Sequence record: OQ708376.1
Strand: one strand, 5' to 3'
Length of the DNA: 64,000 nt
DNA from: Escherichia phage vB_EcoM_CRJP21
Part shown: one piece after another, positions 1,081-21,864 of the stretch
Layout of the letters: each line of letters opens with the position of its first letter
How positions within the stretch are numbered: position 1 is the stretch's first letter
Position numbers and translations under genes: made by a program
The notes under the pieces: model-generated
What the model saw: only the letters and a program-made list of their open reading frames with translations
Databases searched by the model: none
What the model was told of the DNA's origin: nothing

Positions 1081-1145
1081 GCGTAACTATGCACCCGGTG
1101 GGCTTGAGTCTTTCTCGACTTGATGGAACTATTATACAGTACTGG
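1081..1145. repeat. R1 element copy 1 (GCACCCGGTGGG...CTTGATG...CAGTACTGG)
   Basis: about 60-bp element recurring at 3246 and 4778. Confidence 0.5.
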
Positions 1146-3104: not shown

Positions 3105-3186
3105 GCAGTTTACAAATCTTTACAATTGCCGGTATTGACTTATTTTGTCAGTACTGGCATAATGTATTCATTGGCAGATAAGCCGT

Positions 3187-3214
3187 AGCCCATAGGGTGC
3201 GGGAGTGTATCTAT
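3187..3214. repeat. R2 motif copy (AGCCCATAGGGTGCGGGAGTGTATCTAT)
   Basis: about 28-bp motif recurring at about 9172, 13194, 16469, 18721. Confidence 0.55.
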
Positions 3215-3245
3215 AGAAAAATTAGTTTAGTATAGTTACAATTGT

Positions 3246-3303
3246 GCACCCGGTGGGTTAGCTGTTGTCATGGGGTATATTATACCAGTACTTGATAATG
3301 CTG
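3246..3303. repeat. R1 element copy 2
   Basis: matches 1081..1145 and 4778..4833. Confidence 0.5.
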
Positions 3304-4156: not shown

Positions 4157-4184
4157 TTGCAAACTAAGTTTAAAAGCGTATAAT
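4157..4184 (+). promoter_or_regulatory. sigma70-like promoter (TTGCAA, 16 bp, TATAAT)
   Basis: consensus boxes. Confidence 0.6.
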
Positions 4185-4236
4185 ACTTTATATCGAGAGC
4201 GGGAATAGTTCCCGCTACTAATGAGGAATACTACAA

Positions 4237-4401
4237 ATGAATACTTTTACCTTCGCTCAATTGAACGCCCTGGATGTATTGTCTGATGCTTTGCGGGATG
4301 CAACTGAAAGCGGTTTATTTGACAATGTTGACATTCACCCTGATGTAATTAATAATTTTTGTGATGCTATCGCAGAAGTACTGGAAGATCTAAAAAAATA
4401 A
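4237..4401 (+). CDS. hypothetical small protein (54 aa, not in ORF track)
   Basis: hand translation MNTFTFAQLNALDV...; promoter + hairpin + RBS upstream. Confidence 0.55.
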   Translation: MNTFTFAQLNALDVLSDALRDATESGLFDNVDIHPDVINNFCDAIAEVLEDLKK

Positions 4402-5275: not shown

Positions 5276-5575
5276 ATGAAAATTGCAATCATCGCCCTGG
5301 CTTTATCTGTTTCCTCTTTCGCTGTTAATGCGTCATTAGATGTAAGTAGTGAAAAATTCATTCAGTGCACTGTTGCAATGACCGATGAAAGAACTGGCGA
5401 GATTGTATTAAAGGATTTAGAGATCCAGCCGGAAGCATTTAAAAACGGCCCGTTCCATGAAGAAGACGAAAACGGTAGCACGACAATTTATTATGATGCC
5501 AGTACTAAACGCGGTTCGGTCACTGTAATGGATACCGAGAAAGTAACTCATACCGGCGTTATTAATTGCCGTTGA
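5276..5575 (+). CDS. small secreted/periplasmic protein (Sec-type signal peptide)
   Basis: N-terminus MKIAIIALALSVSSFAVNA with AxA-like cleavage site. Confidence 0.6.
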   Translation: MKIAIIALALSVSSFAVNASLDVSSEKFIQCTVAMTDERTGEIVLKDLEIQPEAFKNGPFHEEDENGSTTIYYDASTKRGSVTVMDTEKVTHTGVINCR

Positions 5576-8449: not shown

Positions 8450-8659
8450 ATGCTTACTGTACAGGATAAGATCGACATCTTAAAGGTTAATATGTATGTG
8501 ATTGATGCCGTACCTGGTAAAGTATTTGCATACGATGATAGTACTGTAAGCGATTTCTACTATAGCCAGGACGTGGGGGATCTTTCTGTACAGTCGGTTA
8601 TTGAAAACGTAGTTAATGCAGCGTATGAGCATTTACTTTCAAATAGTACTTGCAATTAG
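8450..8659 (+). CDS. hypothetical protein (69 aa)
   Basis: track ORF; next promoter overlaps its 3' end. Confidence 0.5.
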   Translation: MLTVQDKIDILKVNMYVIDAVPGKVFAYDDSTVSDFYYSQDVGDLSVQSVIENVVNAAYEHLLSNSTCN

Positions 8660-8727
8660 TTTTTAAACGCGTATAATGTTTTACATGAAGGGGAGAAATG
8701 ATTCTCCCCAATAACAGGAGAAACAAA

Positions 8728-8880
8728 ATGAAACAATACAACGCTCGGTTTGATGTTACTATCGGTAACGGCAAAGGTCAATTCTCTTTCAGTACTCGCC
8801 GCAGTTATACAGAAAACTTCCTGCGTAATTGTGCACTGACCGCCGCTCAAATTAAACACTATTTTCAGGCTAAAAAATGA
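8728..8880 (+). CDS. hypothetical protein (50 aa)
   Basis: ATG 7 nt after CAGGAG; promoter + hairpin upstream. Confidence 0.55.
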   Translation: MKQYNARFDVTIGNGKGQFSFSTRRSYTENFLRNCALTAAQIKHYFQAKK

Positions 8881-8966
8881 AATCATTAGCTTATTACAGT
8901 TCGGCCCTGGTCGGTGCATTGATCGCGGCATTGTTAGTAACCTATCTATTCTTTATGGTGATTTAA
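8877..8966 (+). CDS. small hydrophobic peptide (29 aa, single predicted TM helix)
   Basis: ATGA overlap with upstream stop; MKSLAYYSSALVGALIAALLVTYLFFMVI. Confidence 0.4.
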   Translation: MKSLAYYSSALVGALIAALLVTYLFFMVI

Positions 8967-9110
8967 ATGAATCCAACAGGTTTAAACTATAAAAGTTGTT
9001 CTGCATTTACGAAAGCAAATAAAGCGAATGCACGTAAAGCGAAAGTACAGGAATACATCAAGCAAGGCATGACGCGAAAAGCGGCGATTATAAAAGCTAA
9101 AAATAAATGA
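8967..9110 (+). CDS. small basic protein (47 aa)
   Basis: TAAATG coupling; K/R-rich. Confidence 0.4.
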   Translation: MNPTGLNYKSCSAFTKANKANARKAKVQEYIKQGMTRKAAIIKAKNK

Positions 9111-9202
9111 AAAAAGTGGTTGACTTCGGTCAGCCATTTTGTTATTATATATTCATTGAGAGATAGCTCACTAGCCCACAGGGTGCAGGAGTGTATCTAT
9201 TG
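9111..9202 (+). repeat. intergenic cassette copy A: hairpin-embedded promoter (R3) + R2 28-mer
   Basis: TTGACT-17-TATTAT inside inverted repeat, then AGCCCACAGGGTGCAGGAGTGTATCTAT. Confidence 0.55.
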
Positions 9203-9320
9203 TATGAGTATTGAGTACTGAAAACTATTTTTAAAAAGTACTTGCAAACTATCTCAATAAGCGTATAATGTTTTACATCGAAAGGGGAAACGGTTTCCCC
9301 TGGTAATAAGGAAACAAATC

Positions 9321-9662
9321 ATGACTATCTCAATTGCTCAATCTAACTTTGAAAATGAAATCATCGCCCAGGCACTGCGTTTAAATGATGGTCGGGCCGA
9401 AATTAATTACGGTTTCAATTCAGGCGGTTGCGAAAAATATCAGTACTTTGTAACGGCTGATGGCGGTGTCCTGGGTATCAATACAGTTATTGTAAACATC
9501 CAAAAAATTAATTTCAATGATCCAGACGATAGCCAGTTTTACATCACTGGCGTAGACGTGAACTATGAGGATGACTCACTAACTGATGATCACACTGGCG
9601 AGCGGTTAGAAAGTGCATACGGTGAAGATGATTATCAGTCCGGTCCAGAAGATTTCGAATAA
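9321..9662 (+). CDS. hypothetical protein (113 aa)
   Basis: track ORF; promoter 9242-9269 + GGGGAAACGGTTTCCCC hairpin. Confidence 0.65.
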   Translation: MTISIAQSNFENEIIAQALRLNDGRAEINYGFNSGGCEKYQYFVTADGGVLGINTVIVNIQKINFNDPDDSQFYITGVDVNYEDDSLTDDHTGERLESAYGEDDYQSGPEDFE

Positions 9663-9758
9663 TATAAAAAAATAGTTTGACAATAGATTATAGTACTGTA
9701 TAATAGTTTACATCAAGGGGAGAAAAACTTCTCCCCACTAACAGAGAGAGAAAACAAA

Positions 9759-9971
9759 ATGGCTAATATCCGGTCGAAATTAAAAAATGCAAAACAAGTT
9801 TTATTTTCAGATCATGAATACTTTAATAAAGATATTACAGGAGTTACAAGTATCAAGGAAGTAAAAGAAAAAACCGGCGTTTTGTGTGATGTGCGATTAG
9901 TTGGAACATTTGGGAATAACGTGCTATATCGCTGCGGTGATTACAATTTTACACTGACTATCATTAACTAA
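9759..9971 (+). CDS. hypothetical protein (70 aa)
   Basis: track ORF; promoter TTGACA...TGTATAAT + hairpin. Confidence 0.6.
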   Translation: MANIRSKLKNAKQVLFSDHEYFNKDITGVTSIKEVKEKTGVLCDVRLVGTFGNNVLYRCGDYNFTLTIIN

Positions 9972-10053
9972 AAATATTATCACAGTACTATTGACATAGT
10001 TTGATAGTACTGACATAATAACTTTTATCAACTACACTATTAAGGAATTAAAA

Positions 10054-10233
10054 ATGGCTATCATCGCAAAAACTGAAATCGTTGGTCTGGATTCTATCAT
10101 CATGACGTTTGAAGATCAAAAAGGTATGTATGTAGTTTCATATGGTGATTATGTTCGGGAGTATGAAACGGTAGACGAAGCCTTTGAAAGTTACATTCGC
10201 CAGGTGAATAAAGCATACGACGATTACCGCTAA
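10054..10233 (+). CDS. hypothetical protein (59 aa, not in track), MAII-start paralog group
   Basis: hand translation MAIIAKTEIVGLDS...; class-II promoter upstream; replaces track minus ORF 10100..10300. Confidence 0.55.
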   Translation: MAIIAKTEIVGLDSIIMTFEDQKGMYVVSYGDYVREYETVDEAFESYIRQVNKAYDDYR

Positions 10234-10332
10234 AATATATTACCAGTACTATTAAAGATATTGACAACGTTTGATAGTACTGTATAATAAGTTTTATCAA
10301 CAGTAGTTAACTTAACCTAAGAGAGAAATAAA

Positions 10333-10476
10333 ATGATCGCACTGGATTCATTCATCGACGCAGTACTGGCAAAAACTGGCGAGGATCTGACCGCAGAACA
10401 ATACGCAATGATCGAGCAATGCCAGCAAGACGGTAAATCGGTGAAAGATACTGTTAAGATTATCCGCAAGATGTAA
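10333..10476 (+). CDS. hypothetical small protein (47 aa, not in track)
   Basis: class-II promoter + RBS AAGAGAGAAA; terminator follows. Confidence 0.5.
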   Translation: MIALDSFIDAVLAKTGEDLTAEQYAMIEQCQQDGKSVKDTVKIIRKM

Positions 10477-10482
10477 GATTAT

Positions 10483-10512
10483 AGCCCACTGGTTAACGCT
10501 GGTGGGCTTTAA
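10483..10512 (+). terminator. candidate terminator hairpin (contains Chi octamer GCTGGTGG at 10498-10505)
   Basis: AGCCCAC-loop-GTGGGCT, weak T-run. Confidence 0.4.
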
Positions 10513-10581
10513 TTCATTACCCTATACAATGCCAGTACTAAACCGTTTATCTCGTTAGAATGCGTTACAGGACGTTTAACA

Positions 10582-10779
10582 ATGATTAGCATGAAATCAG
10601 TACAAAAACAAATAGAAACATTATCAAAAATTAAACGTAAACAGTACTCCTTAGAATATACAATCAATGGTAACTATCATCTAATGAAAGAGAATAATTT
10701 TATAGTCATTGATGAATCATTGCAAATCATTAGTATAGTACTGAAAGCATTAATCAATGACAGAAAAAAATTAAAATAA
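10582..10779 (+). CDS. hypothetical protein (65 aa; alt start 10591)
   Basis: track ORF preceded by R4 motif. Confidence 0.45.
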   Translation: MISMKSVQKQIETLSKIKRKQYSLEYTINGNYHLMKENNFIVIDESLQIISIVLKALINDRKKLK

Positions 10780-10874
10780 ACTATTGACAATATCATCAAG
10801 TACTGGCATAATACTTACATCAAGACGAGAACGTCACTAACCCATAGGGTGCACAAATGTAACTGTATAATATT

Positions 10875-10905
10875 GATCAAAAAATGATCTGATCAATACT
10901 TGATC
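10875..10905. promoter_or_regulatory. cluster of four GATC sites (three TGATCA palindromes) in 31 bp
   Basis: direct read; intergenic. Confidence 0.5.
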
Positions 10906-11110
10906 AATTTGCGTAAAGTAGTATAATTCTATGCAGTTGGTTAGACGAAAGGTTATGATTAGTAGTGCAAGTGTATAAAAATTTTCATGGTGTATCGTTT
11001 CGCACATATGGGGATGAATATGTGGTATCATGTGGATTGGAAAAAGTAAGAACAAGTAATATTATTGTCGCATTACAGTACTATAGTATTTTTATAATGA
11101 GGTTAAAATA

Positions 11111-11368
11111 ATGGCTGTAGGATTCGCGAAAGATGGGGCCGAACAAGACGAGATTAACGCAGTGATTCAGGCCGCCGTTAACCACGCTAGAAAGCAAATT
11201 AACGCACAAATAGAATCACTGATACATTGCCTCGACTGCGGCGATATAATCCCTGAGAATCGACGCCAGGCCGTTAAGGGATGTAAGTACTGCATAACTT
11301 GCCAGGAGGATCATGATAGTACTTTTAAACGTCCCCCGCGTAATTGTTGGCATAGATCTATGAGATAA
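11111..11368 (+). CDS. TraR/DksA-family C4 zinc-finger protein
   Basis: CLDCGDIIPENRRQAVKGCKYCITC matches CxxCG-x3-IP-x2-RR-...-C-x2-C signature. Confidence 0.65.
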   Translation: MAVGFAKDGAEQDEINAVIQAAVNHARKQINAQIESLIHCLDCGDIIPENRRQAVKGCKYCITCQEDHDSTFKRPPRNCWHRSMR

Positions 11369-11431
11369 AAAGTATTGACAGTACTGAAAGATAGTGTATA
11401 ATGTTTTATATCTTAACTGAGGATAGAAATC

Positions 11432-11788
11432 ATGGGAATACAACATATCACGCGTACTACTGACAATGGCGAGATCACTGGTTATCAAGTACAGGGCAAA
11501 GTAGCACAATTGCAGTACTGGTTTGTTAAACGTGGAATCATTGCACCGGATCTTGATTATGACCGTGTAGCGTTTATTGATTCTCTTTATGTTGATCCTG
11601 ATAGTCGGGGCAATGGTGAAGGTAACGAATTAATGAATGCCTTTATTGATGCCGCCGATGATTCAGATTGTATCATTTTAGAATGCGATACGGGAGAAGA
11701 TAACGCCTTTAATCTTAAAGAATGGTACGAAGGTTTCGGATTCGAGGTACTGATCGATAGTGAATATCCTATCATGATTTTATCATAG
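11432..11788 (+). CDS. putative GNAT-like acetyltransferase (small)
   Basis: RGNGEGNELMNAFIDAA resembles GNAT motif A; assignment tentative. Confidence 0.4.
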   Translation: MGIQHITRTTDNGEITGYQVQGKVAQLQYWFVKRGIIAPDLDYDRVAFIDSLYVDPDSRGNGEGNELMNAFIDAADDSDCIILECDTGEDNAFNLKEWYEGFGFEVLIDSEYPIMILS

Positions 11789-11866
11789 TACTTGCATTTA
11801 GTTTTCAGTAGTGTTATAGTACTTACATCAAGGGGAAACATCTTCCCCTACTAAGAGGAAATGAAA

Positions 11867-12055
11867 ATGGAAAACTTATCAAGTATTTTAGTACAAGATG
11901 ATTTCGGTAATCCTGGAAGTGCTATCATTGTTCGGGGTAATAAAGCAACATTTGTTATTGCTGGTGGACCTGTACAGCGTAGCATTAAAAACAATGCCGT
12001 TACTATTAATAATGTACGCTATCGCTTAGATAAAGAATTGATTCATAAACTGTAA
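11867..12055 (+). CDS. hypothetical protein (62 aa)
   Basis: second ATG, 7 nt after AAGAGGA. Confidence 0.55.
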   Translation: MENLSSILVQDDFGNPGSAIIVRGNKATFVIAGGPVQRSIKNNAVTINNVRYRLDKELIHKL

Positions 12056-12082
12056 TATTAATTTAATAGAGGATAACAATAA

Positions 12083-12406
12083 ATGTACATTCATACTACT
12101 ATCACAAAGGAAGTCCGTTGCCAGTTCGAAAGTATTCCGGGCGTATGTTTCATCACTGGTACGTTTTCCCCTGGTGATCGTGATAATCCAGTACTGTTAC
12201 AATTACGCCATCCATCATGGGATAAAGCATTTGATCTACCGTTGAATGAATTCGCAACTACTGCTGAAAAGTACATTAAAAATATTCGCGAGAATGATCG
12301 ACTATTCATTAATGCTTTTAGTGATTCCGCGTTAAGCGAGATCCACGGTGTATTGGTTGCAATCATGGAATCAATGGAGAAAACTAAATTCAAACAAGGT
12401 GAATAA
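12083..12406 (+). CDS. hypothetical protein (107 aa)
   Basis: track ORF; RBS AGAGGA. Confidence 0.6.
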   Translation: MYIHTTITKEVRCQFESIPGVCFITGTFSPGDRDNPVLLQLRHPSWDKAFDLPLNEFATTAEKYIKNIRENDRLFINAFSDSALSEIHGVLVAIMESMEKTKFKQGE

Positions 12407-12412
12407 AAACTA

Positions 12413-12440
12413 TTGACAAGATAATCTAGTACTGTATAAT
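12413..12440 (+). promoter_or_regulatory. sigma70-like promoter with extended -10 (TTGACA, 16 bp, TGTATAAT)
   Basis: consensus boxes. Confidence 0.65.
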
Positions 12441-12489
12441 AAGTTACATGAAGGGGAGAAATGATTCTCCCCACTGAGAGGAAAGAAAA

Positions 12490-12702
12490 ATGCAAGGTCA
12501 ACTAATCGTTCGTAAATGGTCTGATACTAACGCTAAACCGTGGGATGTACAATACATCGGACCGGATGGGGTATCACGTTATCAGCCTGGCGTAACGCAT
12601 AGTACTGAGCAATATGCCGCCGCTCACCGCGAACGCCTGTTAGAATCCATGAAACAGGGATACGGTGAAAAATTCATTCAAGATCATTGGCTGAAAGATT
12701 AA
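12490..12702 (+). CDS. hypothetical protein (70 aa)
   Basis: track ORF; promoter + hairpin. Confidence 0.6.
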   Translation: MQGQLIVRKWSDTNAKPWDVQYIGPDGVSRYQPGVTHSTEQYAAAHRERLLESMKQGYGEKFIQDHWLKD

Positions 12703-12719
12703 TATAAGGAGTACAGCTT

Positions 12720-12812
12720 ATGCAAATGAATCCGATGATTATTGTTTTAGCTGTACTTATGATCATTCATGCAATAGTAGAAGTATTAACGCAATCAGGA
12801 GTAATAAAATGA
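12720..12812 (+). CDS. small hydrophobic peptide (30 aa, predicted TM)
   Basis: strong RBS TAAGGAG 8 nt upstream; MQMNPMIIVLAVLMIIHAIVEVL... Confidence 0.5.
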   Translation: MQMNPMIIVLAVLMIIHAIVEVLTQSGVIK

Positions 12813-12982
12813 TTCAAGTAGAATTATCAGTACTGAAAGATCTGTTTTATCGGTTAGGTACTACTGGCGAGTATCCTAAAAGTGATACCGCAAAACTTTT
12901 TGTATCACTCGACTTATGGCAACGCGAACAATTAGTAATGTCCTGGCGTAAAGGTAAAGCAGATAGCGAGGTGAAAGCATGA
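12809..12982 (+). CDS. hypothetical small protein (57 aa, not in track)
   Basis: ATGA coupling to upstream peptide. Confidence 0.45.
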   Translation: MIQVELSVLKDLFYRLGTTGEYPKSDTAKLFVSLDLWQREQLVMSWRKGKADSEVKA

Positions 12983-13128
12983 AAGAATTCTTATTCGAAG
13001 TAGTGTTTCAAGGTGTCGGTAGTAACCAACTGATTCGCTCAAGTGGTTACAATGTTAACCAGGCATGGAATAACATTAAACAAATGTACCCGAACGCTAT
13101 CACCTATCGCAACCCGAAACAAGTTTAA
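12979..13128 (+). CDS. hypothetical small protein (49 aa, not in track)
   Basis: ATGA coupling. Confidence 0.45.
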   Translation: MKEFLFEVVFQGVGSNQLIRSSGYNVNQAWNNIKQMYPNAITYRNPKQV

Positions 13129-13137
13129 AAATAATTG

Positions 13138-13234
13138 AAAAAGGGATTGACTCCGGTCAGTCCCTTTGCTATTATATACGCATAGAAACAAATCAGCCCA
13201 CAGGGTGCATAAATGTATCTATTGTTTGCTGGTG
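13138..13234 (+). repeat. intergenic cassette copy B (R3 hairpin-promoter + R2) followed by Chi octamer 13227-13234
   Basis: near-identical to copies at 9111, 16409, 18667. Confidence 0.55.
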
Positions 13235-13299
13235 GCTAGTACTGAAAACTATTTTTAAAAAAGTACTTGCATTGTACTTAGAATCAAGTATAATGTTTT

Positions 13300-13375
13300 A
13301 CATCAGGACGGGGAACGAAACAAGTAACCCCGTTAAGTAGTCCAGGAGTAAGACATAAGAAAACCTCCCCTGATA
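13300..13375 (+). ncRNA. candidate structured leader / small RNA (copy 2)
   Basis: about 90 percent identical by eye to 3390..3465; between tandem promoters. Confidence 0.35.
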
Positions 13376-16408: not shown

Positions 16409-16498
16409 AAAAGGGATTGACTCCGGTCAGTCCCTTTGCTATTATATATTCATTGAGAGATAACTCACTGACCCATAGGGTGCGGAAGTGTATCTATT
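16409..16498 (+). repeat. intergenic cassette copy C (R3 + R2)
   Basis: near-identical to other copies. Confidence 0.55.
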
Positions 16499-16619
16499 AT
16501 ATAAGTATTCAGTACTGAAAACTATTTTTAAAAAAGTACTTGCATTGTACTTAGAATCAAGTATAATGTTTTACATAGAGAGGGGGAAATGGTTCTCCCT
16601 GGTAATAAGGAATAAAATC

Positions 16620-18666: not shown

Positions 18667-18790
18667 AAAAGGGATTGACTCCGGTCAGTCCCTTTGCTAT
18701 TATATACTCATAGACAAAAACTAGCCCACTGGGTGCAGGAGTGTATCTAAAATATATAGTTAATAACGGTGAGTAACTATCTGCTGGTGG
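18667..18790 (+). repeat. intergenic cassette copy D (R3 + R2) followed by Chi octamer 18783-18790
   Basis: direct read. Confidence 0.55.
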
Positions 18791-21495: not shown

Positions 21496-21706
21496 TAACT
21501 TTGAATACGAGGCCCGTGCTAAGAGTGCCAGAAAAAAAGAGAACACCATTTACTTCACTATGATGTACTTACAATGGACTGAAATTGAAGAAAAGGTTGC
21601 TGAAGTATGGATGTTGGAATTCATGGGGACGCAGTATCAGAATAGGTTTGCGGGTGAGTATATCAATGTTCTTATGAAACAAATAGAAAGAAAGGAAAAG
21701 AACTAA
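21482..21706 (+). CDS. family-1 small protein
   Basis: core MGTQYQNRF; internal ATG chosen. Confidence 0.5.
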   Translation: MNIINNFEYEARAKSARKKENTIYFTMMYLQWTEIEEKVAEVWMLEFMGTQYQNRFAGEYINVLMKQIERKEKN

Positions 21707-21864
21707 TGGTTTTCATTAACATATCTGACCAACTCGATACTAAACTAGAAGTCGAGCAGAGTGAGGGATGGATGCTGTACTTTCTTGGAACTTCTCATCA
21801 AAATTTTTATATCCATGAACACATAGTTGCACTCACAAATCTAATAAGGGATAAATGTAAATGA
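21706..21864 (+). CDS. family-1 small protein (52 aa, not in track)
   Basis: core LGTSHQNFY; TAATG coupling. Confidence 0.5.
   Translation: MVFINISDQLDTKLEVEQSEGWMLYFLGTSHQNFYIHEHIVALTNLIRDKCK

Follow-up and report, generated by a model that had tools for sequence, protein, structure and literature searches.

Small early genes in the terminal repeat of Escherichia phage vB_EcoM_CRJP21 include two predicted single-pass membrane peptides

We analyzed a 64,000-nucleotide (nt) stretch of DNA from Escherichia phage vB_EcoM_CRJP21 (sequence record OQ708376.1), referred to below as the window, and focused on eight short open reading frames (ORFs) of its plus strand. These are designated A (8877-8966), B (8967-9110), C (12720-12812), D (12809-12982), E (12979-13128), F (4237-4401), G (10054-10233), and H (10333-10476). 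An ORF finder listed all eight exactly as a preliminary description of this DNA had given them, with lengths of 29, 47, 30, 57, 49, 54, 59, and 47 amino acids (aa). Operon 1 (8728-9110) is arranged as promoter, leader, 50-aa gene, A, B, and terminator, and operon 2 (12490-13128) as promoter, leader, 70-aa gene, C, D, E, and terminator, while F, G, and H are three monocistronic units. The features of the two operons are listed here, with ribosome-binding sites given as Shine-Dalgarno (SD) motifs.

8650..8677, plus strand: promoter of operon 1, TTGCAA-16-TATAAT, 10/12 consensus match, part of a promoter-leader cassette
8690..8709, plus strand: 5' leader hairpin of operon 1, GGGGAGAAATGATTCTCCCC, fold energy -13.9 kcal/mol
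8728..8880, plus strand: first gene of operon 1, 50-aa basic protein, phrog_7119; the stop codon (TGA) and the ATG of A overlap (ATGA)
8877..8966, plus strand: A, 29-aa hydrophobic peptide MKSLAYYSSALVGALIAALLVTYLFFMVI, one predicted transmembrane (TM) helix, no SD, ATGA-coupled start
8967..9110, plus strand: B, 47-aa very basic protein, SD GGTGAT; its ATG abuts the TAA of A (TAAATG)
9113..9140, plus strand: intrinsic terminator of operon 1 (terminator scan); the hairpin includes the TTGACT -35 box of a downstream promoter-like site
12413..12440, plus strand: promoter of operon 2, perfect 12/12 consensus
12453..12472, plus strand: 5' leader hairpin of operon 2, identical in sequence to the operon 1 leader hairpin
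12490..12702, plus strand: first gene of operon 2, 70-aa protein, phrog_13428
12720..12812, plus strand: C, 30-aa hydrophobic peptide MQMNPMIIVLAVLMIIHAIVEVLTQSGVIK, SD TAAGGAG 8 nt before the ATG, one predicted TM helix
12809..12982, plus strand: D, 57-aa protein, three helices predicted, phrog_10572; ATGA overlaps with C and E
12979..13128, plus strand: E, 49-aa protein, SD GAGGTGA, phrog_37188
13140..13167, plus strand: intrinsic terminator of operon 2 (terminator scan), TTGACT embedded

The ATGA overlaps that had been reported to join C, D, and E and the TAAGGAG motif before C were read directly from the sequence, and B is as basic as described (pI 10.5, net charge +11). The preliminary description had also called the whole set translationally coupled and unannotated. 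Coupling holds for operon 1 (ATGA, TAAATG) and for C-D-E (ATGA) but not for F, G, and H, which are monocistronic. Likewise, the ORFs are unannotated only in an annotation track with a 60-aa cutoff; in GenBank, every one of them is annotated in at least one relative. A is found there as ELP22_0033, fEgEco12 g022, and phAPEC6 gp520c, and C as 121Q_298 and G17_00022. The exact sequences of A, B, C, and F are present in NCBI nr as hypothetical proteins, the copies of B and C being attributed to vB_EcoM_CRJP21.

The region from 8600 to 13300 is matched at 89-98% identity by 43 phage records, nearly all from Escherichia and Salmonella phages of the genus Asteriusvirus (121Q, PBECO4, G17, ELP-22, and fEgEco12 among them), with genome sizes of 350-385 kb. 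In 35 records, with 88-99% DNA identity over the region, gene order and junctions are as in the window. The window itself is a mosaic of Asteriusvirus genomes, to which its DNA is 95-98% identical, the best single record covering 84% of it at 95.7% identity. Its base 1 aligns to base 1 of both fEgEco12 and vB_Ec-M-J, whose annotated repeats span 1-20,993 and 1-21,525, respectively. The termini of fEgEco12 have been determined experimentally, and direct terminal repeats of 20,993 bp (fEgEco12) and 21,525 bp (vB_Ec-M-J) have been reported (PMC13070987). As judged from this alignment, the window start is the left physical end of an Asteriusvirus genome, that is, of a 121Q/PBECO4/G17/fEgEco12-like Escherichia coli jumbo phage. 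Because of the shared base 1 and the repeat lengths of the relatives, positions 8877-13128 are placed inside the left direct terminal repeat of about 21 kb.

To assess selection, homologous segments from 10-14 relatives were aligned, and the ratio of nonsynonymous to synonymous change (pN/pS) was taken against the most diverged relative. The record CMSTMSU (MH494197, UNVERIFIED_ORG) was excluded because it is full of frameshifts; these hit several small genes (D, G, and the 70-aa gene) and are most likely sequencing errors rather than pseudogenes. For A to E, G, and H, pN/pS ranged from 0.04 to 0.48, and variation was biased toward third codon positions (Fisher p 8e-3 to 1e-5). Variable columns at codon positions 1/2/3 numbered 4/1/8 in A (pN/pS 0.12), 10/8/25 in B (0.31), 14/4/19 in C (0.48), 16/9/31 in D (0.31), 13/10/31 in E (0.27), 2/0/10 in G (0.04), and 2/1/11 in H (0.04). 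The 50-aa and 70-aa genes gave pN/pS values of 0.04 and 0.18. B varies in length by in-frame indels: most relatives lack 6 nt, and BF17 has a shorter version that stays in frame. The ATGA and TAAATG junctions are invariant across relatives.

Several of the proteins have homologues beyond the genus. Those of the 50-aa protein are widespread, occurring in Alcyoneusvirus, rV5-like, and Certrevirus phages, and those of D occur in Klebsiella, Yersinia, Cronobacter, Erwinia, and Serratia jumbo phages. E is 56-58% identical to Alcyoneusvirus proteins, including gp460 of Klebsiella phage K64-1 (58%), and the 70-aa protein is 36% identical over 36 aa to K64-1 gp461. Given the third-position bias, the low pN/pS, the in-frame indels of B, and these cross-genus homologues, all eight ORFs are almost certainly coding on comparative grounds. 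They are real, already catalogued genes and an ordinary feature of this DNA.

The terminal repeat is rich in consensus sigma-70 promoters, and the units that they drive have one to four genes. A promoter scan found seven perfect 12/12 TTGACA-16-TATAAT matches within 3.4-14 kb. The promoter-leader cassette recurs in at least 18 copies between 1677 and 19284 of the window, on the plus strand and in the terminal-repeat part only (e.g., 8650-8727 and 12413-12489). Its order is -35 box, 16 nt, TATAAT, nnTTTACAT, a GC-rich hairpin of 8-9 bp, SD, and ATG. The hairpin stems vary between copies through compensatory changes and fold at -11 to -16 kcal/mol; the hairpin is probably a 5' mRNA-stabilizing stem-loop. 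In the related jumbo phage PA5oct, most terminal-repeat genes are strongly transcribed early (PMC7318152), and in CBB, short hypothetical early ORFs are preceded by RpoD-like promoters (PMC5259590). From the promoter consensus and the PA5oct RNA sequencing, we infer that the host sigma-70 RNA polymerase transcribes the terminal-repeat units early.

Duplex energies between the SD and the 3' end of the 16S rRNA lie between -5.3 and -12.3 kcal/mol for all ORFs but A (-2.5 kcal/mol); A would therefore rely on re-initiation at the ATGA overlap. A scan for small ORFs (plus-strand ATG starts, 20-59 aa, outside larger ORFs, first 22 kb) recovered all eight. The only other ORF of similar length and SD strength encodes 52 aa at 21706-21864 (SD -5.6 kcal/mol), just past the terminal repeat. 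The eleven remaining ORFs are of 20-31 aa, and two of them have comparable SD energies.

The preliminary description had seen a TM-like helix in A and in C. We called a single-pass membrane protein where one hydrophobic segment of 17-21 residues had a predicted insertion free energy at or below 0, summing apparent free energies (dGapp) on a scale whose values are reportedly those of Hessa et al. 2005. By this measure, A and C are each predicted to be single-pass membrane proteins: residues 11-29 of A sum to -3.35 kcal/mol and residues 7-23 of C to -1.03 kcal/mol, while every other ORF of the eight lies above +7. The sole charge of A is K2, and its G13xxxA17 motif is conserved; in C, the polar nature of residue 17 (H or Q) is conserved, and there is a Lys at the C terminus. 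Both ORFs thus probably make one-helix membrane peptides.

Hydrophobicity by itself is a poor guide to genes in such DNA, since 5 of 197 six-frame ATG ORFs of 25-40 aa also reach a dGapp of 0 or less. Such chance hydrophobic ORFs arise in AT-rich DNA, and the case for A and C therefore rests on conservation. A was found full-length, without indels, and at 89.7% identity or more in 34/34 relatives (tblastn); the same search gave no match outside Asteriusvirus. One could argue that the two are untranslated chance ORFs in an AT- and T-rich spacer, conserved through recent ancestry or DNA-level signals, all the more as many annotators skipped them (A in 121Q, SP27, and G17; C in SP27, PBECO4, and phAPEC6) and an AGTACT-like DNA motif overlaps C. 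Yet the substitutions are codon-phased; start, stop, and overlap junctions are invariant in relatives; the SD of C is stronger than that at 99.4% of background ATGs; in A4 and Turkey5, C stands behind a promoter cassette of its own; and C has a counterpart in another genus. On this balance, a chance origin is highly improbable.

Three architectures were found at the C site. In the first, that of the window, C is coupled within the operon. In the second, seen in A4 and Turkey5, a diverged 29-aa C (45-48% identity) comes first behind its own promoter, leader hairpin, and SD; the dGapp of these versions is -1.78 (A4) and +1.71 (Turkey5). In the third, found in 14/35 records (including fEgEco12, WPEC3, ph0011, and vB_Ec-M-J), C is missing and the same cassette lies directly before D. 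C is thus present in 21/35 records and, because one of the three architectures does without it, is a real but dispensable (accessory) gene.

These arrangements also bear on whether the peptides matter at all. A, C, or both might be coupling spacers or upstream ORFs that carry ribosomes to B or D and set stoichiometry, the peptide itself being functionless. A lacks an SD, its start codon overlaps the stop before it (ATGA), the SD of D is located in the 3' end of C, and in 14/35 relatives C is replaced by a promoter-leader-SD cassette before D, so that D and E do not need C. Against a mere spacer stands the constraint on the peptides: pN/pS is below 1, and second codon positions are nearly invariant (1 of 13 variable columns in A, 4 of 37 in C), which means that their hydrophobic character is preserved. 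Moreover, A is at least 90% identical in 34 records with no indels, the C of A4 and Turkey5 retains its length and TM segment at only 45-48% identity, and another genus has a syntenic hydrophobic ORF of 27 aa. We therefore regard the spacer explanation as improbable for either peptide.

That genus is Alcyoneusvirus. In K64-1, the gene order is gp460 (homologue of E, 58%), gp461 (70-aa gene, 36% over 36 aa), gp462, and gp463 (D, 52%). The product of gp462 has 27 aa, MYMPIIIPLAVLLIAAVICEQYHLLGM, with a dGapp of -0.7, and is intact in Muenster and KP13-7. It bears a weak likeness to C beyond composition (Smith-Waterman score 41, shuffle p 0.0035). This ORF is annotated in K64-1 only and not in Muenster or KP13-7. 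In GAP32, Yersinia phage fHe-Yen9-04, and Serratia phage BF, the D homologue is kept with only a promoter spacer of about 60 nt upstream, so the C-like micro-ORF is limited to Asteriusvirus and Alcyoneusvirus. The 50-aa homologue of K64-1, RaK2, and Muenster is followed by a hydrophobic ORF of 38 aa (annotated as K64-1 gp442, dGapp -3.1). The start of this ORF shares bases with the preceding stop codon (TAATG or TTGA), and RaK2 and Muenster differ in its TM part by 4 synonymous and 6 conservative changes. In RaK2 (NC_019526), the E homologue and the 38-aa ORF are unannotated (sites 850-966 and 238064-238189).

We then considered what the proteins might do. Five ORFs match PHROG families over their full length (E 7.6e-21 to 3.6e-40), all of them families of unknown function: 29913 (B, E 7.6e-21), 10572 (D), 37188 (E), 9374 (G, E 9e-37), and 34103 (H, E 8e-38). 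Against the PHROG hidden Markov models, C and F had no match and A only phrog_32088 at E 0.005, which is not significant. Homologue searches with the D, F, and 50-aa proteins returned close relatives only, and Rfam at its gathering threshold gave nothing in the whole window. Sub-threshold matches to SAM_SMF (50-aa gene), NF033695 (C), and aureocin A53 (B) fell below the curated cutoffs and were not used. The AlphaFold2 model of the 50-aa protein was of low confidence (predicted local distance difference test score, pLDDT, 66) and unfit for a fold search, while that of D (pLDDT 84, three helices) gave no Foldseek match in the PDB at E ≤ 0.001.

In size, single hydrophobic helix, and short polar tail, A and C are reminiscent of Ibs, Hok, TisB, and Fst-type peptides, and both stand behind strong early promoters. 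They might thus be membrane-damaging toxins, of the type I or holin-like kind, that depolarize the inner membrane for early host shutoff rather than bind a particular membrane protein. However, no type I toxin or holin model matched in Pfam, NCBIfam, or PHROGs, and specifically no Hok, Ibs, TisB, or Fst family of Pfam or NCBIfam matched A or C. A consensus scan showed no promoter-like site on the opposite strand of C and a single weak one (9/12, 8781-8753) in the gene upstream of A, although such a scan could miss an antisense RNA. Early depolarization would presumably come at a high price for a jumbo phage, given its long replication cycle. A toxin function is accordingly a slim prospect.

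Taken together, these genes are, in our view quite probably, ordinary small early genes of the Asteriusvirus terminal repeat, A and C being predicted early single-pass inner-membrane micro-proteins with an accessory role in host takeover or competition. Host RNA polymerase would transcribe the units in the first minutes of infection, and ribosomes ending an upstream cistron would re-initiate at the overlapping AUG; since A has no SD, it would be produced strictly in step with the 50-aa protein. Peptides of 29-30 aa are too short for co-translational targeting, so A and C would enter the inner membrane after translation, each as a single-pass helix. The positive-inside rule predicts an N-in topology for A (K2) and a C-in topology for C (C-terminal Lys). 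There they would most probably bind a host inner-membrane protein or tether soluble partners from their operons to the membrane. Because C is missing from 14/35 relatives, the role would be accessory, in host takeover, competition, or defense evasion, and not in core replication.

Several observations weigh against this interpretation. C is dispensable, being absent in those 14/35 relatives, and A has the weakest coding signal, with low divergence, 13 variable columns, and a codon-position chi-square p of 0.058. No family of known function was found for the eight ORFs in Pfam, NCBIfam, or PHROGs; an exhaustive HMMER search with C as query, covering 1.8 billion cluster representatives, recovered its own cluster only; no PDB sequence matched B, E, the 50-aa protein, or the 70-aa protein at an E below 0.1; and Foldseek found no functional homologue with the D model at E ≤ 0.001. 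The LAVL stretch common to C and gp462 falls on an AGTACT-type DNA motif whose enrichment is 15-fold genome-wide. Finally, the 38-aa ORF of K64-1 (gp442) does not resemble A in sequence (shuffle p 0.66) and shares DNA with a promoter; it may be coincidental and is therefore a positional analogue only.

The preliminary description had suggested superinfection exclusion or inhibition of host proteins. Neither activity is tied to any of the proteins by a result from Pfam, NCBIfam, PHROG families of known function, PDB sequences, or Foldseek, and this suggestion is a conjecture. A more specific proposal casts A and C as membrane anchors for two early modules conserved in RaK2-like jumbo phages (50-aa protein plus TM peptide; 70-aa protein plus TM peptide plus D). 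At the inner membrane, each peptide would tether or activate the soluble partner from its operon so that a membrane complex of the host is disabled, for example a transporter, a route of DNA entry, or a defense effector bound to the membrane. We consider this unlikely. If it were true, the presence or absence of C (21/35 genomes) would contribute to differences in host range or in competition between phages.

As a discovery, predicted early membrane micro-proteins of this kind carry little weight: they are catalogued hypothetical proteins, and small early phage genes with an occasional TM micro-peptide are routine. What we add is modest and consists of evidence for purifying selection on A and C, the polymorphism of C (present in some phages, absent in others), and the synteny across genera. 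With regard to annotation, 34/34 relatives checked have A, yet it is omitted from about half of the records inspected, and C and the E homologue are absent from the annotation of some reference records, including RaK2. This unevenness justifies a consistent annotation of A, C, and the E homologue in RaK2-like jumbo phages. The cross-genus synteny of C, combined with natural phages with and without it, gives inexpensive experimental access to what a phage membrane peptide of 30 aa does.

The three monocistronic units have the promoters and ribosome-binding sites that had been ascribed to them, with promoter matches of 10/12 (F), 11/12 (G), and 12/12 (H) and SD energies within the range given above.

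4157..4184, plus strand: promoter of F, TTGCAA-16-TATAAT, sigma-70-type, 10/12
~4199-4215, plus strand: leader hairpin of F, GCGGGAA/UUCCCGC, -13.2 kcal/mol
4237..4401, plus strand: F, 54-aa acidic protein (pI 4.05), monocistronic, SD GAGGA, -6.3 kcal/mol
9991..10019, plus strand: promoter of G, TTGACA-17-CATAAT with TG, 11/12; leader without hairpin
10054..10233, plus strand: G, 59-aa acidic protein, monocistronic, phrog_9374
10261..10288, plus strand: promoter of H, perfect 12/12 consensus
10333..10476, plus strand: H, 47-aa protein, monocistronic, phrog_34103
10483-10508, plus strand: hairpin 3' of H; G17 annotates a terminator right behind its H homologue

F is identical to fEgEco12 g07 and slurp01 PSLUR01_00173 and shows hardly any variation within the genus; its pN/pS is 0.63. 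It is 63% identical over 51 aa (DNA 77%) to the C-terminal half of the 109-aa Phapecoctavirus protein nepoznato_139. The equivalent of G is 121Q_290. G, H, and the GNAT gene have leaders of a second class ("TATCAAC") that lacks the hairpin. The neighborhood includes genes for a TraR/DksA-like zinc-finger protein (11111-11368) and a GNAT acetyltransferase (11432-11788). One micro-ORF absent from the preliminary description, at 10965-11111 (plus strand, 48 aa, GTG start), directly adjoins the TraR/DksA-like gene, which starts at 11111; in other records this micro-ORF is annotated as 121Q_293, fEgEco12 g029, and PBECO4 AGC34933, and the whole 10780-11110 segment is missing from G17. At 5276-5575 (plus strand), a 99-aa protein has an N-terminal signal-peptide-like sequence, and its fEgEco12 homologue g10 is labeled "protein spackle"; this protein may have a periplasmic superinfection-exclusion function in the same early region.

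Two repeated DNA motifs were also apparent. The palindrome AGTACT is the most overrepresented hexamer in the window, with 254 copies versus 16.8 expected (e.g., 340-347, 10361-10368, and 12828-12835), and CAGTACTG occurs in 62 copies versus 0.7 expected. The copies of the AGTACT motif are spread over the reading frames as 54/37/48, with 106 intergenic copies, and many promoter spacers contain the motif. Its density is high in the terminal repeat, and the stretches at 20-24 and 28-32 kb have almost none. Klebsiella phage K64-1 shows enrichment as well, with 14 copies versus 0.33 expected in 1.6 kb. The motif is a DNA-level signal; a literature search on it found nothing relevant. The second motif, an intergenic element, occurs in 8 copies versus 0.04 expected.

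9113-9240, 13140-13265, 10784-10870, 16440-16560, 18690-18760, 3140-3260 (both strands), and 1090-1102 (minus strand): copies of the intergenic element

Four copies (after 9113, 13140, ~16440, and ~18690) have a terminator hairpin containing a TTGACT -35 box, followed by TATTAT, and the others have an ordinary TTGAC-type promoter; CCCAYAGGGTGCA..TGTATCTAT follows about 25 nt downstream. The element had no Rfam match and could be a short noncoding transcript or a regulator binding site. Over the copy at 9120-9221, ELP-22 annotates a 33-aa TTG ORF that is probably spurious.

Among known systems, the phage superinfection-exclusion membrane proteins T4 Imm and Sp and HK97 gp15 are made early in infection, and their site of action is the membrane or the periplasm; A and C are shorter than Imm and gp15. 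None of the three has sequence or profile similarity to A or C in Pfam, PHROG, or NCBIfam, and no superinfection-exclusion family appeared among the results from these databases for any of the eight ORFs. The pre-early genes of T5 lie in a long direct terminal repeat of small genes, mostly of unknown function, whose strong sigma-70 promoters are used by the host RNA polymerase as soon as infection begins. Two-step DNA transfer, as in T5, is not known for Asteriusvirus. The window resembles T5 and PA5oct (PMC7318152) in having a long terminal repeat of small, presumably early genes, but differs from T5 in that no homology to A1, A2, or dmp was seen in any family search.

Closest are the hypothetical proteins of Asteriusvirus itself (121Q_286-300, G17_00020-00036, ELP22_0032-0049, and fEgEco12 g07 and g021-g036), which are the same genes at 76-100% aa identity in the same order and with the same junctions. 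They show no difference of substance from the window, except that individual records omit A or C. Alcyoneusvirus (K64-1, RaK2, and Muenster; gp441-442 and gp460-463) shares with the window the syntenic early terminal-repeat modules, which in Muenster lie within a terminal repeat predicted by PhageTerm. In contrast to the window, its soluble proteins are only 36-58% identical, E is upstream of the module rather than downstream, and a B homologue is lacking.

As to the peptides themselves, C is not a member of the KPN_01571 30-aa family (NF033695), because its score of 17.5 bits (E 0.0025; 15.3 bits for the A4 version) is far below the curated cutoff of 35 bits. Small single-pass membrane proteins of E. 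coli such as AcrZ, MgtS, YohP, and KdpF are roughly 30 residues long, contain a single hydrophobic helix, and lack a cleavable signal peptide, and proteins of this type are expected to insert post-translationally and to act by binding larger membrane proteins. A and C resemble both these proteins and the KPN_01571 family in their size and in their single predicted hydrophobic helix.

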